A DNA stretch of 64,000 nt. Origin: Squalus acanthias. Lineage: Eukaryota. Location of the stretch: assembly GCA_030390025.1 (NCBI GenBank), contig CM059427.1, positions 122,946,001 to 123,010,000 on the forward strand, written 5' to 3'. Shown piece after piece: positions 19,389 to 63,199 of the stretch (positions within the stretch are counted from its first letter, which is position 1; each line of letters begins with the position of its first letter). The notes beneath the pieces are model-generated. The model saw nothing but the letters and a program-made list of their open reading frames with translations. It did no database searches and was not told the origin of the DNA. The translations under genes were made by a program, and so were the position numbers.

Positions 19389-22005
19389 CGAATCGCAGAT
19401 AGCACACACTCCAATCACAGATACCTCACACTCCAATCACAGATACCTCACACTCCAATCACAGATACCACACTCTCCAATCACAGATAGCACACACTCC
19501 AATCACAGATACCACACTCTCCAATCACAGATACCACACTCTCCAATCACAGATAGCACACACTCCAATCACAGATACCACACTCTCCAATCACAGATAC
19601 CTCACTCTCCAATCACAGATACCTCATACTCCAATCACAGATACCACACTCTCCAATCACAGATACCACACACTCCAATCACAGATACCTCACTCTCCAA
19701 TCACAGATACCTCACTCTCCAATCACAGATACCTCATACTCCAATCACAGATACCACACACTCCAATCACAGATACCTCACTCTCCAATCACAGATACCT
19801 CATACTCCAATCACAGATACCTCACTCTCCAATCACAGATACCACACACTCCAATCACAGATACCTCACTCTCCAATCACAGATACCTCACTCTCCAATC
19901 ACAGATACCTCATACTCCAATCACAGATACCACACACTCCAATCACAGATACCTCACTCTCCAATCACAGATACCTCACTCTCCAATCACAGATACCTCA
20001 TACTCCAATCACAGATACCACACACTCCAATCACAGATACCTCACACTCCAATCACAGATACCACACACTCCAATCACAGATACCACACACTCCAATCAC
20101 AGATACCTCACACCCCAATCACAGATACCTCACTCTCCAATCACAGATACCTCACTCTCCAATCACAGATACCTCACACCCCAATCACAGATACCTCACT
20201 CTCCAATCACAGATACAACAATCTCCAATCACAGATACCACAATCTCCAATCACAGATACCACAATCTCCAATCACAGATACCTCATACTCCAATCACAG
20301 CTACCTCAATCTCCAATCACAGATACCACAATCTCCAATCACAGATACCACAATCTCCAATCACAGATACCACAATCTCCAATCACAGATACCACAATCT
20401 CCAATCAAAGATACCTCAATCTCCGATCACAGATACCTCAATCTCCAATCACAGATACCTCAATCTCCAATCACAGATACCACACACTCCAATCACAGAT
20501 ACCTCAATCTCCAGTCACAGATAAAACAATCTCCAATCACAGATACCTCACTCTCCAATCACAGATACCACAATCTCCAATCACAGATACCACAATCTCC
20601 AATCACAGATACCTCACTCTCCAATCACAGATACCACAATCTCCAATCACAGATACCACAATCTCCAATCACAGATACCACACTCTCCAATCACAGATAC
20701 CACACACTCCAATCACAGATACCTCACTCTCCAATCACAGATACCTCACTCTCCAATCACAGATACCTCATACTCCAATCACAGATACCACACACTCCAA
20801 TCACAGATACCTCACTCTCCAATCACAGATACCTCACTCTCCAATCACAGATACCTCATACTCCAATCACAGATACCACACACTCCAATCACAGATACCT
20901 CACACTCCAATCACAGATACCACACACTCCAATCACAGATACCACACACTCCAATCACAGATACCTCACACCCCAATCACAGATACCTCACTCTCCAATC
21001 ACAGATACCTCACTCTCCAATCACAGATACCTCACACCCCAATCACAGATACCTCACTCTCCAATCACAGATACAACAATCTCCAATCACAGATACCACA
21101 ATCTCCAATCACAGATACCACAATCTCCAATCACAGATACCTCATACTCCAATCACAGCTACCTCAATCTCCAATCACAGATACCACAATCTCCAATCAC
21201 AGATACCACAATCTCCAATCACAGATACCACAATCTCCAATCACAGATACCACAATCTCCAATCAAAGATACCTCAATCTCCGATCACAGATACCTCAAT
21301 CTCCAATCACAGATACCTCAATCTCCAATCACAGATACCACACACTCCAATCACAGATACCTCAATCTCCAGTCACAGATAAAACAATCTCCAATCACAG
21401 ATACCTCACTCTCCAATCACAGATACCACAATCTCCAATCACAGATACCACAATCTCCAATCACAGATACCTCACTCTCCAATCACAGATACCACAATCT
21501 CCAATCACAGATACCACAATCTCCAATCACAGATACCACACACTCCAATCACAGATACCTCACTCTCGAATCACAGATACCTCACTCTCCAATCACAGAT
21601 ACCTCACTCTCCAATCACAGATACCTCACACTCCAATCACAGATACCACACACTCCAATCACAGATACCACAATCTCCAATCACAGATACCACAATCTCC
21701 AATCACAGATACCACACTCTCCAATCACAGATACCTCACTCTCCAATCACAGATACCACACACTCCAATCACAGATACCACAATCTCCAATCACAGATAC
21801 CACAATCTCCAATCACAGATACCACACTCTCCAATCACAGATACCTCACTCTCCAATCACAGATACCTCACTCTCCAATCACAGATACCTCACACTCCAA
21901 TCACAGGTACCACAATCTCCAATCACAGATACCTCACTCTCCAATCACAGATACCTCACTCTCCAATCACAGATACCACACTCTCCAATCACAGATACCA
22001 CATAC
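19389..22005. repeat. Minisatellite, 22-bp unit, about 119 copies
   Basis: ccaatcacagatacc(t/a)ca(ca/ct/at/ta)ct; phase is exact from 19411 to 21985 (117 x 22). Confidence 0.99.
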
Positions 22006-22139
22006 TCGCCAGTTGGCTTGACCGAGTAGAATTTTTCTTCAACCTAGTGAGACGCAAACGTCAGCCATGTTTCCTGAACCTGCTGCTTATGCTGGAAAGT
22101 AAATATGTATTTTCTAACAGAATCTCAGACTTTGCAAGC

Positions 22140-22460
22140 TCCCTCAGTGGCTCAGTTGGGAGCTGCAGTAGCCTGGTGCGTTACAGGAAGCTCTCAGGAT
22201 TGATCACTCTCGTCTGTGTTGCCAGTTGAGGCTACATTAGCAATGTTACAATCGACCACTGCCCCTCCCGGTTGACAGTGAGATCGTGCGGGTGTGAGGC
22301 GAGGGTGGGACCCAGCTCTGCTGTGGGACCACCTTGATTGAGTCACATGTTAACACTCACCGTCCAGGCTCAGCCTGTGAAGGGTGGCTGTATTGAATGA
22401 GGTGCCACACTCCTGCTGAACAGGACCCCGAAACTGAGCAGCGCCTTCAGCAGAGAAAGG
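22140..22460 (+). mobile_element. SINE B, degenerate
   Basis: gtggctcagttgg head...cactcaccgtccaggctca...cagcgccttcagcagagaaagggg. Confidence 0.55.
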
Positions 22461-24870: not shown

Positions 24871-25900
24871 GCCCCCAAAAATGTGATATTGTGACTAAAA
24901 AGCTAGTGCAATAGTAAAGAAACATCTAGCAGATTCTAATTGAGGAGGGCACCTGTGGAGAGAGATGTCTCATCTGACTGGGATCTAAGCCCTTAATGGT
25001 GTTATTCTTCAGCACTTTGATGTTTATAGAGAGTGGGATTTTTTACATGGGAGTCTGGTGTGTTTGTTGCTGTTTGGCTGCTTCTCTTTGCACTCCTCAC
25101 CTCCTAATAATCTTCCGCAGACACATTACACCAGCGCGAGTGTACTGAAGCCAGGGGTTTTTTATGATAATTATTTTGTTTGTTAATGACCTGCCAATAA
25201 ACAAATGGCAGCGGGAGGAATTTGCCAGGTTTTGGCGCGCCGTGTCTCTCTTCACGCCAGCTGAGACACTAGGGCTGTTCTTTTATAAGATGGGAAGCCC
25301 CCATTGCCAGTTCCCAGTCTCGAGTGGCACTTCACAAAAGAATGTGGCTGGCCTGGTGGCAACACGTCGCGACAAGCTAGGAGAGACTGTGAAGTGTTAA
25401 AATGTTTACATAGGGAGTGCCAATAGTCATTAGCATGCGATGAGGAATGCTTCTAAACATGCCTGCTGGTTCACTTTCCAAAGATAGGCAGCCACACAAA
25501 GGATTGCTGGTTGGAATAAAGCCACTCAATTTAAAGTATCTCATTGTTTTTTTTTAACTTAACTAGTAGTAATTGAGTGAACTAATAGTGATTGATTGAC
25601 GCTCGTGAAAGCTGTAAATCAGGTCTGTATGTAGTTGTACTGTTTCGATATTTTGCCATTTCCAGGGTGGGGTGGGGGGGGGGGGAGATGCCCGTTATTG
25701 AAGGGTCTTTCTCTCCGAGAGCTTTTCCACTCTTTCTGCTATGTATCGTTTACCCTGTGTCCCACTCCCACAGACGAGAAGGCTGGTAGGGAACTTGCTA
25801 CCAGGTCCCTGAAGCGTTGTCACTCCTCACCTGGGCATCTGGTGCAAGAGTGTCACTGAACTGACTTGCGCTGCCAATCTTCTCTGTCTCTCTCTCTTGC

Positions 25901-25984
25901 TGCGGAGATGCCGGTGTTGGACTGGGGTGGACAAAATTGAGAGGTCGCACAACATTGAGTCAGTTTGCAGTTGTGCGGTCTCTC
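25901..25984. mobile_element. Penelope-like mini-insertion, collapsed palindrome
   Basis: tgcggagatgccggtgttggactggggtggacaaa leader shared with 40212 and 53560; short inverted arms; flanking direct repeat tctctctcttgc at 25889-25900 and 25979-25990. Confidence 0.75.
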
Positions 25985-39705: not shown

Positions 39706-40211
39706 AAACTTATGTAAAAACTCCACCTATAAAACAGAGCAGGGAAAGGGGTTACAGTCCTTAAAGTTAATAAAGCCATAATTATTTTTTACTGTATTTG
39801 CTTTCTGTTAATCTCTACTAAAGTAAATTGCTTTCAGCTGTAAGATCTTTTAACCCAGGTAACTCACTGACTGAGATATTAGCTCAAATCACACATGTTC
39901 ACATTGGGAATCATATTCTGGTGTCTCCATGGGCTATTGCTTTTGTAAATACCTTTCGACTTTTCTGTCAAAATAAGGAGGCAAAGATACAAAAGCACTT
40001 GGGCTGTTTGCTGATATGCTGATATTTCCAACACGTTGCACCTGGAGAACGAGGTTAGTTCTTGAAGTAGGGGGAGGTGGAGCACACACACTCCGGGACA
40101 CGTGGTGACAAGACACTGCTGTCAGCTTCTAATTGCCTTCCCAGAGTCAGAAGCTAAACTGTGATCAGGCCATTCACCCAACACAGACAAAAGTCTCACT
40201 TACCTTTGAAG

Positions 40212-40434
40212 CCATGATGTGGAGATGCCGCTGTTGGACTGGGGTGGACAAATGTGAGAAGTCGCACAACACCAGGTTATAGTCAAACAGTTTTATTTGA
40301 AATCACAAGCTTTCGGAGCTCTGCTCCTTCGTCAGGTGAAGTCTTCACCTGACGAAGGAGCAGCGCTCCGAAAGCTTGTGATTTCAAATAAAACTGTTGG
40401 ACTATAACCTGGTGTTGTGCGACTTCTCACATTT
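40212..40434. mobile_element. Penelope-like mini-insertion, inverted terminal repeat pair forming a palindrome with 92-bp arms
   Basis: Arms 40250-40341 and 40343-40434 with 2 mismatches; 38-nt unpaired leader; 12-bp duplication ttacctttgaag at 40200-40211 and 40433-40444. Confidence 0.85.
40345..40381 (+). ncRNA. Minimal type I hammerhead ribozyme-like motif (mirror copy on the minus strand at 40303-40339)
   Basis: UCAC-CUGACGA-a-GGAGC(agc)GCUCC-GAAA-GC-UU-GUGA: conserved CUGANGA and GAAA core, 5-bp stem II, stem I UCAC/GUGA, palindromic AAGCUU in place of stem III. Activity is not shown. Confidence 0.7.
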
Positions 40435-40470
40435 ACCTTTGAAGAGTTTGGGAGTGAAGTAGTGGCTCAG

Positions 40471-40558
40471 CTGTCCGTTATACACCCCGCCCGAATTTCC
40501 TTTCCATTGACATCGATGGTAAGTAAAATCGGATTTGGTGTATAACGAGCGGTTGATC
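40471..40558. mobile_element. Short palindromic MITE-like remnant
   Basis: cgttatacacc...ccattgacatcgatgg...ggtgtataacg inverted symmetry. Confidence 0.5.
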
Positions 40559-40734
40559 CTTTACTGCCTGCTTTGTGTCCCCGCTGAAGTTGAATTTCAA
40601 CTCCTCTGTGTTTTCATTATAATTATAAATGAGGCGGGAGATGAGATGGTCGACCCGTATTCATTTTTTTAACGCAAATCTCTATCAGGAGTAGAATTTC
40701 AATACTTAAAATGAATAATAAGATAAAATACTTG

Positions 40735-52660: not shown

Positions 52661-53559
52661 CAGAAGGGAAAGCGGGACAACAAGTGAAAACAATCGTCTG
52701 CCGGCAAATGCCTGGGAGATGGACCGTGTTCCAGTCTGTGAGGCAGGCAGCAGGTCTGAACTTAAAGGCAGCACTTTAAATAGAACTTTTTTGTCTCTCT
52801 CTCTCTGTCTTGTTTTCGATGTGAGACAAGGGTTAAGCAAAGGCCTGTTGCTGTTTTATTTAAGATGGCTCTAATGTATGTCCCACCTGACAAGGGAGAT
52901 GTGAAAGTTTTGTTGGTGAAGTGGTAGAAAGCAAAACATTCTTGAGAGGGACCGGCGGGATTTGTTTGTCCTGCTAAGTAATTATTAAGGCTGAACCGTA
53001 AGGCAGCGAAAGGACTCTTGGTGTATGAGCTGCCACCTTGTCTCATTTTCCATGTCTCTCAACTGTCAAGCTGTCCTGCATTCCAAAAAAAAAAGACCAA
53101 TATGAATTTTATTTACCCCATTTGCTGTGAGTTAGGGTGTTTGAACTCCATTATTGTACAAATTACCATATTAAAACCCAGTGATGACAGTGATTTTAGT
53201 GTTTTGTACGATTTATTTCCTCATTAGCATACTGCCCTTGGGCCAGTATAATTGGTACAAGAAGACTCTCTCTCTGTACTACTTATAGTCTCCCCTTTGA
53301 ACCCAGAGAGAAGCCAACACAGGGAACATATAATACAAAGAGCAAAGGGGGTTGTTTCATTATTCATGCAGCTTTGAACTAATAAAACACAATGTCAATA
53401 TATTTGGAGATATATGACATAATGTAGGTAGGTGGGAGAGTAACTTTCTACCATTTCAAGCTGCTTAAAGGTGCTTGTACTCGCTTCCCGACTCACTCAC
53501 CCAGCAGCAACCCCAATGCAACTAAGACCAGCCACTGGGAAGACTATCTTTTATTATGA

Positions 53560-53675
53560 TGCGGAGATGCCGGTGTTGGACTGGGGTGGACAAAAATGAG
53601 AAGTCGCACAACACCAGGTTATAGTCCAACAGATTTATTTAAAATTACTGTTGTTGGTGTTGTGCGACTTCTCAT
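53560..53675. mobile_element. Penelope-like mini-insertion, partly collapsed palindrome
   Basis: Same leader as 40212; 21-bp arms at 53596-53616 and 53655-53675; 14-bp duplication atcttttattatga at 53546-53559 and 53674-53687. Confidence 0.82.
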
Positions 53676-54004
53676 CTTTTATTATGAGCACAATCTGCCC
53701 AGTGGCTGGGTCTTAGCGAAAGCTGGAAATTTATGTTAAAGTTGGCACTCGTGCCAGCTCTCTAAGCTGAGTGTAAAAGCATCTTTATTGTAGTAAATGT
53801 TCTCCCTCCGTTGGTACTGTAATGGAATTGAGGGAGCACTGCTGCCTCCTGAGGCCGTCCTGGGTGTGAGGTCAGCTATCTGAGCGCAGGCCCAGGATTG
53901 AACCTGGGACCTTCCATGCCTCAGAGATGGGGCCTTGTATCTATGGCTGCATTGATACTCCCAACTATAGTGTTATAGCGAATGCTAAAGTAAGAGTATA
54001 AAAT

Positions 54005-60229: not shown

Positions 60230-61217
60230 TTAGAACCAAGGCGGTAGATGGAGTTGAGGTACAGAAGCTAATATCCAAATGGAAATGAAGTTGGTTTATC
60301 CTGCGGGGTGTGTGTGTGTGTGTATGCATCATCTTGTTGCCAAGCTCTTGGCAAGTGTGAGGTGTGGCTTGCTGGCACTTGCGCCTGGAAAATTAGCCTA
60401 ATCTGATTTGCGTGGATTAGACAGGTTTGTGAGGGAGGCCCCGTCAGTGCCCAGCGGCGGGCTGGAAGAGTCCCGCTGGGCTTTGATGAGAGATGTGACT
60501 CTGACTGCAAGAAAAAAAAGCCACAAAATGCTATAGGGAGGAAAACGAGCTTCATTTGCTTATAAAGGGACCTGTCATTACAACACAAGACTGCAAGCCA
60601 AAACAGAGAGAGAGAGAGAGAGAGAGTAAAGAGGACCACCAACTTCTGTCAGATCACGGGACCTTAAACACTGGGAGCTGGACCAATAGGTGTTCTGCTA
60701 AATGGCTTCCAAGCAACGCTGTTTTTCTCTTGGGTTCTTGAAATCCCCAGAGAAAGGTCAGATTCATTAAATGCCACTGTGAGCACCAGCTATTTACTGA
60801 TGTTTAACACTTAAAAAGAGCCCAGTTTTCAATAATATGTGCTGGAGCGCATCTTAATAATTGATGGATTTCATCAGAATGACTTTTATCCAAATGGGCT
60901 GGAGTGAGCCACAGTAGCCGAGATAAGACAGTGGCTTTTATTATTTCAAGAGTCCCCAGCTTTTCTTTTAAGAATTAGATGAAGCTCTTGCTGGGGTGCG
61001 GTTCCATGGGCGCTGACAGCCCACGTGAGGATACCCTCCCGCTGCGTTTACATCACGAGCCAGCTAACGGCACCAGTCTGCTGCATAACTGACCGCTCAT
61101 TCTCCCCTAAACCGGCTGCGCTACAGGGTGACCCCAGATCCAGCGCGCGTGCTAACTTGACCGTGGCAGTTTCAGACAGCGCATAGAGTAGTGATGCATG
61201 TGTGTCGCGGCATGACG

Positions 61218-62603
61218 TAACTGGGGTGCGGGGGGTGGGGGGGTTGGGTCGGTGGGTTTACTGGGGTGCGGGGGGGGGTGTGGGGGGTTGGGTCGGTGGG
61301 TTTACTGGGGTGCGGGGTGTTGGGTCGGTGGGTTTACTGGGGTGCAGGGGGGGTGGGGTGCGGGGGGGAGTGGGGTGTTGGGTCGGTGGGTTTACTGGGG
61401 TGCAGGGGGGGTGGGGTGCGGGGGGGAGTGGGGTGTTGGGTCGGTGGGTTTACTGGGGTGCAGGGGGGGTGGGGTGCGGGGGGGAGTGGGGTGTTGGGTC
61501 GGTGGGTTTACTGGGGTGCGGGGGGGGTGTGGGGGGTTGGGTCGGTGGGTTTACTGGGGTGCGGGGGGGGTGTGGGGGGTTGGGTCGGTGGGTTTACTGG
61601 GGTGCGGGGGGGGTGTGGGGGGTTGGGTCGGTGGGTTTACTGGGGTGCGGGGTGTTGGGTCGGTGGGTTTACTGGGGTGCGGGGGGGGTGGGGTGTTGGG
61701 TCGGTGGGTTTACTGGGGTGCGGGGGGGGGGTGGGGTGTTGGGTCGGTGGGTTTACTGGGGTGCGGGGGGGGGTGGGGTGTTGGGTCGGTGGGTTTACTG
61801 GGGTGCAGGGGGGGGTGGGGTGTTGGGTCGGTGGGTTTACTGGGGTGCAGGGGGTGTGGGGTGCGGGGGGGGTGGGGTGTTGGGTCGGTGGGTTTACTGG
61901 GGTGCAGGGGGTGTGGGGTGCGGGGGGGGTGGGGTGTTGGGTCGGTGGGTTTACTGGGGTGCAGGGGGTGTGGGGTGCGGGGGGGTGGGGTGTTGGGTCG
62001 GTGGGTTTACTGGGGTGCAGGGGGTGTGGGGTGCGGGGGGGGTGGGGTGTTGGGTCGGTGGGTTTACTGGGGTGCAGGGGGTGTGGGGTGTGGGGGGGGT
62101 GGGGTGTTGGGTCGTGGTTACTGGGGTGCGGGGGTGGGGTGTTGGGTCGGTGAGTTTACTGGGTGCGGGGGGGTTGGGTCGGTGAGTTTACTGGGGTGCG
62201 GAGGGGGTGGGGTGTTGGGTCGGTGAGTTTACTGGGGTGCGGGGGGGTTGGGTCGGTGAGTTTACTGGGGTGCGGAGGGGGTGGGGTGTTGGGTCGGTGG
62301 GTTTTACTGGGGTGCGGGGGGGGGTTGGGTGTTGGGTCGGTGGGTTTACTGGGGTGCAGGGGGTGGGGGGGTTGGGTTGGTGGGTTTACTGGGGTGCAGG
62401 GGGGGTGGGGGTGGGGGTGTGGGGTGTTAGGTCGGTGGGTTTACTGGGGTGCGGGGGGGGTGGGGTGTTGGGTCGGTGGGTTTACTGGGGTGCAGGGGGG
62501 TGTTGGGTCGGTGGTTTACTGGGGTGCAGGGGGGGGGTTAGGTCGGTGGATTTACTGGGGTGCGGGGGGTGGGGGTGGGGGGTGTTGGGTCGGTGGGTTT
62601 ACT
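61218..62603 (+). repeat. G-rich minisatellite, variable unit of about 30-60 bp
   Basis: Core ttgggtcggtgggtttactggggtgc(g/a) plus variable G-runs, roughly 30-35 copies. Confidence 0.97.
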
Positions 62604-63199
62604 CGCCCCCAGTGAGAGGAATGGCAGTCAGGGAGAACCAAAGCATTGGGCAAAAAATTGTGTCTAGTTTACGTTGAAGTGCCCACTGGTAGAGACCCAC
62701 AATAGAGGGCGCGGCCGGGAAAACTCAGAACGAAAGCAGGCGAGACGATGAGTGCCTTTTTATTTCCCCCTCGCTCTCTGGGCCAGGGGTACGCTGCAGA
62801 GTTGGTGGAGGTATGTTCGAGGAGAGTGCATGGTTCTCACTGAGTTCCTGATGGCTCCATTGCTCTGTGTTGGATCAGTGGGGCAGCAGCAGGGGCACTA
62901 GAATTGGCATCAACGGCCCCTGAGTAGGGAACTCTCTATCCGTTGACTCATTAAATGCTTGTGAATGCCCGGTGAGGACAGGACTGGACTTGGCTCTGGT
63001 GCCCTACAAAGTCACACTCAGTACCTTACGTTTATTTTCTTCAAGAACGAATCTAGCGGTGCCAGTTCCCAGTGCACTACTTTTGCATAGCCAGTAGCTG
63101 CACCACATTCACTAAGGCTGGATGACCCGGTTAAATCAAATGTTCCAGGCAGTCGGCCCTACCAAGTTCGGCAAGTTTACTCTGGGATGGCTACCTCAT

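Follow-up and report, generated by a model that had tools for sequence, protein, structure and literature searches.

A palindromic pair of hammerhead motifs in Squalus acanthias is a common by-product of the integration of a Penelope-like retroelement

Introduction

Does a near-perfect palindrome that carries a hammerhead motif on each of its strands do something where it lies, or is it what the integration of a mobile element leaves behind? The question is raised by an insertion in Squalus acanthias, lying in a stretch of 64,000 nucleotides that was analysed as a whole and is called the window here. A preliminary description had assigned both motifs to the minimal type I hammerheads of Penelope-like elements (PLEs), had proposed that a read-through transcript would hide them in a duplex, and had pointed out that both cores are intact.

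PLEs are the sister group of telomerase. How their inverted ends and tails are built is called undefined in the accessible text of PMC8557442 (here and below, papers are cited for the accessible part of their text), and the arrangement of an inverted tail-less pseudo-LTR (pLTR) with one tail and a target-site duplication (TSD) has already been published (PMC3846280, PMC8557442). Within the literature covered, in which subscription papers and supplements are thinly represented, we found no study of the inverted ends of PLEs that deals with twin priming, start sites or a cap-type G, nor any account of a loop-restricted discordance between PLE arms that are otherwise of one source. Here we describe the insertion, place it in its family and ask what the family's junctions say about how such palindromes are made.

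Results

The palindrome was confirmed as first described, with arms of 92 nt each (40250–40341 and 40343–40434) around a spacer T at 40342 and two arm mismatches, 40320/40364 (in loop II) and 40285/40399, and the 12-bp duplication, TTACCTTTGAAG, was likewise recovered on both sides (Table 1). In both arm differences it is the same arm that departs from the family majority. Two related organisms from a single study (X20 and X21, one contig each) join 40199 directly to 40433, which makes the insertion 233 bp long and the direct repeat a target duplication; the left flank in these two relatives shows 25 differences in 800 bases. The match of a third organism's contig to the window ends at 40199. 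On the minus strand the left arm continues for about 40 nt (40249–40210), here called the tail, and the right arm has no tail, which makes the insertion asymmetric: it joins a tailed pLTR end, head to head, to an inverted copy that has no tail. Positions are given below on a scale on which q1 is 40343 on the plus strand and 40341 on the minus strand and q0 is the preceding A; the predicted cut then falls at q35|q36, and the tail spans q93–132. The family's TATA box is missing from the stub at the locus.

Table 1. Features of the insertion in window coordinates; cuts and transcription start are predictions
Feature	Position	Strand	Remark
Left copy of the 12-bp target-site duplication	40200..40211		Last 2 nt also match the end of the element's tail; single copy in X20/X21
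40-nt PLE tail, absent from the other arm and ending at the ATG of the parent ORF (40215–40213)	40210..40249	-	In L156–L159 the tail continues into the ORF start
Tailed pseudo-LTR arm, with the A of the predicted transcription start (minus-strand 40342, q0) as its first base	40250..40342	-	
Minimal type I hammerhead motif with AGA as loop II; cut predicted at 40307|40306	40303..40339	-	From sequence
Head-to-head junction; a minus-strand G precedes the start A	40342..40343		
Inverted tail-less pseudo-LTR arm (q1–q92); last 2 nt overlap the right duplication	40343..40434	+	
Minimal type I hammerhead motif with AGC as loop II; cut predicted at 40377|40378	40345..40381	+	From sequence
Right copy of the 12-bp target-site duplication	40433..40444		Empty site in X20/X21

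Each strand does carry a minimal hammerhead motif, composed of stem I (UCAC/GUGA), CUGACGA, an extra A, stem II (GGAGC/GCUCC), GAAA and GC-UU, with no stem III loop. The plus-strand cut site had been placed correctly, and the assignment to the Penelope type of minimal type I hammerheads was borne out. Folding also agrees with the proposed masking of both motifs in a read-through RNA, as a prediction: the whole transcript folds into a long hairpin of -176 kcal/mol (z = -24), a stability that none of 200 shuffles attained, and a single arm alone is predicted to form stems I and II. Across subfamilies the core is conserved relative to its flanks, as expected earlier, a conservation that is inflated because the motifs used to collect the arms contain the core themselves; stems I and II show changes that compensate each other. 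Variation among 21 recurrent hammerhead haplotypes is found at N7, in loop II, at position 17 (U or C) and as paired changes in stems I and II. Paired cells made up 98.9%, with changes on both sides in two of nine pairs; since the haplotypes are related and were found by core-containing motifs, covariation gives moderate backing to the predicted core and stems I and II. An Rfam scan gave 13 matches at E ≤ 10, none of them to a hammerhead family. Its top match was mir-1597 (46.5 bits; gathering score 93), and we rejected a miRNA identity, as the Rfam miRNA matches merely mirror the hairpin shape. Subfamilies with a U4C core (CCGACGA) were also seen (L060:1410–1456, L091:3376–3422 and L101:342–388), most of them with a compensated stem II closing pair.

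The locus is almost certainly the end of a PLE and, by its sequence marks, probably of one of the Neptune/Nematis type. The q1–132 unit is the end of a high-copy element, a 32-base tail pattern being matched exactly at 32,861 places in the 3.7-Gb genome, and in partial tandems it serves as the leader of the ORF, the tail ending at the ATG. That ORF is a single frame (826 aa in L031) with RT and, at its C terminus, a GIY-YIG endonuclease, matched in Pfam by PF00078 (E = 8e-7) and PF01541 (E = 0.0012), both slightly below the curated cut-offs; a search of PDB sequences returned a single weak RT match (E = 0.53). Longer copies, when translated, carry DKG, a CX4CxxC linker and cysteines within the GIY-YIG motif, and the linker, present in the L031, L034 and L035 frames, conforms to the CX2-5CxxC of Neptune/Nematis. 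The family thus combines what marks an EN+ PLE: RT with GIY-YIG, the pLTR arrangement with a one-sided tail, and a TSD with an empty site.

The idea that the locus is special was not supported by comparison with this family. A two-arm pattern matches at least 7,392 loci in the genome (a lower bound), the orthologous site is empty in two relatives and the TATA box has been lost; selection on two intact cores fared no better, since in only 8 of 43 compact fold-backs do both arms extend to stem I. These 43 were found among 90 tail-anchored insertions, a sample confined to the first 9.6 Mb of contig C1 and to exact tail matches (96 of 100 tail matches listed, less six that shared 40 bases after the tail). 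TSDs measured 10–16 bp in the 41 compact fold-backs scored and 12 bp in 18 of them, by a greedy matching that may overshoot. The tail stands on exactly one arm in 105 of 106 compact pairs, and outer ends lie mostly near q87–96 on tail-less arms and near q125–132 on tailed arms. On the 5′ side the longer arm is the tailed one in 16 of the 43 compact fold-backs and the tail-less one in 22, with the two equal in 5. Arm ends do not accumulate at the predicted cleavage site (four ends at q35–37 and six at q30–33 in the 90-insertion sample), nor was a clear peak seen there among 100 junctions listed.

Inverted arms range from about 50 nt up to a 2.57-kb palindrome. This largest insertion (L036:1059–3619) has arms that are 95% identical and contains the 3′ part of the ORF twice. 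Where the arms meet, overlaps use complementarity internal to the hammerhead (CTTC/GAAG, TCA/TGA, AAGCTT or stem II), or short inserts are found; at certain junctions (L138, L081) the inserts are small palindromes. Four separate loci (L183, L186, L204 and L205) have an identical junction with bases explained by neither arm's template. One insertion was met three times (L007, L017 and L019, on two contigs), with flanks about 99% identical over 1.5 kb, and represents either a duplicated segment or a larger mobile unit. A q57 variant that recurred among the best matches was set aside as a product of selection by the query.

Other parts of the window hold further pieces of the family: a second, smaller fold-back stub at 53545–53690, with the hammerhead core missing and a duplication of about 14 bp, within a different short inverted repeat; a tail-less solo pLTR at 29350–29515, with a TATA box, a stem II deletion and a 12-bp direct repeat around it; and a tail-only stub in a CT-rich stretch at 25898–25954. 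An imperfect 53-nt inverted repeat (72%) at 40458–40565 starts 13 bp past the insertion; it is multicopy in related runs and is also there at the empty site. Low-complexity, strongly skewed tracts with long open frames occupy 19400–22200 and 61200–62700. Pfam gave one sub-threshold match for the 62 frames searched among the 74 window frames of at least 95 aa (12 of low complexity were omitted), in a search that short exons escape.

Where do the arms stop? Subfamilies with upstream sequence keep a TATA-like CTATATATG about 24–32 nt before the q0 A, with a spacer of variable length, and that A would be the transcription start, as TATA and Inr predict. Among 97 arms reaching q8, 59 stop in q-2..q8; in the next 11 nt upstream, 6 of the 38 arms past q-3 stop (p = 2e-6), and in the comparison interval q9–19, 19 of 116. 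A TATA box with TCACT like the family's is found in rotifer Pen2a (PMC3846280), and the Drosophila Penelope promoter is internal and TATA-less.

An untemplated G is the accepted mark of cap copying in L1 and SVA (PMC4859970). When counting was restricted to templates with C before q0, the base preceding q0 was G in 2,032 cases and A or T in 727; the first 100 of the latter, read by eye, held 29 A, which gives a G:A ratio of about 10. At the control position q5, also an A after C, G or A was found in 574 cases, the first 100 of which held 29 A, for a ratio of about 2.4. Of 100 junctions listed, 36 reach q0, and by eye these show the templated base in 16, the cap-type base in 15 and others in 5 (p = 0.0016 against an assumed 40%). 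A scripted tally found G in 27 of 45 cases at q0 and 36 of 101 at q1–6, although some junctions enter it twice, once from each side, and a few of its arms belong to other subfamilies. Excess G before q0 is expected from copying of the RNA cap; it is in part confounded, since many partner arms end in the C-rich q1–q7 and several junctions parse both ways. At the locus itself, a copied cap and the first base of the partner arm explain the G equally well. Both start site and cap are predictions made from DNA only.

Do the two arms share one template? Compact pairs were pooled from several listings, a biased sample, and the 98 of 106 that are free of indels were compared. The arms differ at q51 in three of these 98 pairs, against 53% expected for independent draws; at q38 and q43 they never differ, the minor base being common to both arms in five and seven pairs, and at q35 they differ in five and share the minor base in nine. 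Private variants occur on both arms of long insertions. Loop II length was discordant between the arms in 18 of 70 compact pairs. Among the 56 pairs of the commonest backbone 13 show such a difference (30% would be expected if the arms were independent), with 11 of the 13 agreeing at q51, and in L146 and L138 rare outer variants are present on both arms, yet the loop differs. No loop indel was seen in 14 long pairs (three pairs skipped, three too short; p = 0.057 against 13 of 56), a modest contrast between compact and long copies that is confounded with distance to the palindrome centre. As the loop is near the centre only in compact copies, conversion there is possible; differences near the centre (10 of 490 bases, against 90 of 3,512 elsewhere) are weak evidence against centre-directed conversion, because local alignment trims ends. 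The commonest backbone with the long-loop haplotype was found in 0 of 112 arms, an absence that would fit contemporaneous-RNA donors better than random genomic donors. No age difference was seen between q51 A and q51 G (1.04 and 1.27 arm differences; n = 27 and 37).

Discussion

The palindrome is a by-product of integration, and a common one, of an element whose kind is already known. The locus is ordinary, it shows no sign of function, and its stub, with the TATA box lost, is most likely inert; the useful part is the junction statistics across the family.

The account that we favour, and consider reasonably probable, is that twin-primed copies of a leader RNA run to its predicted capped 5′ end and are joined head to head. 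A cut staggered by about 12 nt would allow both nicked target strands to prime reverse transcription on a short leader RNA, from the tail site (q~130) on one strand and from the tail-less site (q~90) on the other, which may correspond to the two RT start sites of Anolis Poseidon. Both cDNAs would run off at the capped end of the leader RNA (predicted, q0), and their 3′ ends would anneal through short complementarity within the hammerhead before being joined. Usually both would copy one RNA, or RNAs of a single source locus, two cases that look alike at the level of sequence, with a frequent switch to another RNA at the hammerhead. A difficulty for twin priming is that the first cDNA would have to be displaced if one RNA is to be copied twice.

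Several of the observations fit snap-back synthesis too. On this reading the second arm arises when one cDNA bends back at its end and serves as its own template, or when an antisense template does so, as was put forward for rotifer Penelope in PMC3846280. In its favour, rare variants outside the ribozyme are common to both arms, junction overlaps draw on hammerhead complementarity, and some junctions (L138, L081) have small palindromic inserts. Self-copying, however, could not yield the loop II haplotype differences between arms, and it leaves unexplained both the end of the second arm near q87–96 and the regular duplication of about 12 bp; one-sided snap-back should moreover make the same arm always extend further 5′, against the 16:22:5 observed. 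We regard self-priming as possible but unlikely, though a variant in which snap-back occurs from either side at similar rates is conceivable. Compact copies in their thousands and identical recurring junctions, such as that of L183, L186, L204 and L205, would suit a retrozyme-like or MITE-like palindromic element that is non-autonomous, propagates itself and moves in one piece. Such an element is very improbable, as junction positions vary by single bases and often delete a core, sizes are continuous up to kilobase palindromes, the compact form lacks the promoter, and the recurrent junctions fall at microhomologies. It is harder still to credit that the host has recruited the locus as a masked ribozyme or source of double-stranded RNA with a regulatory role; the predicted hairpin is very stable and both motifs are intact, but the orthologous site is empty in relatives whose left flank is so little changed, both arm differences depart from the family majority in one arm as in ordinary decay, and the locus is one among thousands.

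In PMC4209133 minimal PLE hammerheads showed weak cleavage, and only as dimers, and in Anolis Poseidon hammerhead cleavage is protein-dependent and dispensable for insertion (PMC11167929). Marker exchange confined to the hammerhead, if true, would give these weakly cleaving motifs a role besides cutting. It is possible, though unlikely, that the minimal PLE hammerhead is chiefly an RNA dimerisation signal, likened to the retroviral dimer initiation site, with AGCU pairing leader RNAs within a protein dimer, dual strong-stop-like copies running to the cap and the RT switching at the ribozyme. Were that so, the palindromes would be a fossil record of an integration intermediate and of copy-choice recombination.

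Among known systems, Pen2a_Av (PMC3846280) shares with the locus an inverted tail-less pLTR, a 30–40 bp tail at one end, a TSD near 10 bp and a junction overlap, and with the family a TATA box followed by an Inr-like TCACT and a pLTR that continues into the ORF start. The locus differs in having the two ends only, with neither ORF nor direct repeat, as do about half of the sampled insertions; the authors of the Pen2a_Av study proposed self-priming, and the accessible text of their paper describes neither a start-site pile-up nor an extra G. With metazoan PLE hammerheads (PMC4209133) the motif has in common a 4-bp stem I, an unpaired base between 9 and 10.1, G10.1-C11.1 and a palindromic 15.2–16.2 with no loop. 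Its stem II has 5 bp, against 7–8 there, two motifs abut here, and one subfamily here has U4C; in Schistosoma, opposite-strand hammerhead pairs lie 100–700 bp apart (PMC4209133).

Poseidon of Anolis carolinensis (PAc; PMC11167929) resembles the account given here in its two internal RT start sites bracketing the tail, in the cutting and extension of both target strands, in a predicted protein dimer and in a protein-assisted hammerhead. Its ORF starts at stem II, whereas that of the Squalus family starts at the tail end, and the accessible text on PAc contains no model for inverted arms. The CX4CxxC linker, present in the Squalus family, is missing from Penelope/Poseidon.

L1 inversions copy non-overlapping portions of one RNA, whereas in the Squalus fold-backs one stretch is copied twice, giving a palindrome. 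L1 is nevertheless alike in that second-strand priming produces an inverted 5′ segment and in the extra G at full-length ends (PMC4859970). Non-LTR retrozymes (bioRxiv 10.64898/2026.07.22.740005) are, like the locus, pLTR-derived, hammerhead-bearing and non-coding. They are head-to-tail tandem arrays, each unit with a hammerhead, whereas the Squalus locus is a head-to-head pair only, set between the two copies of a TSD.
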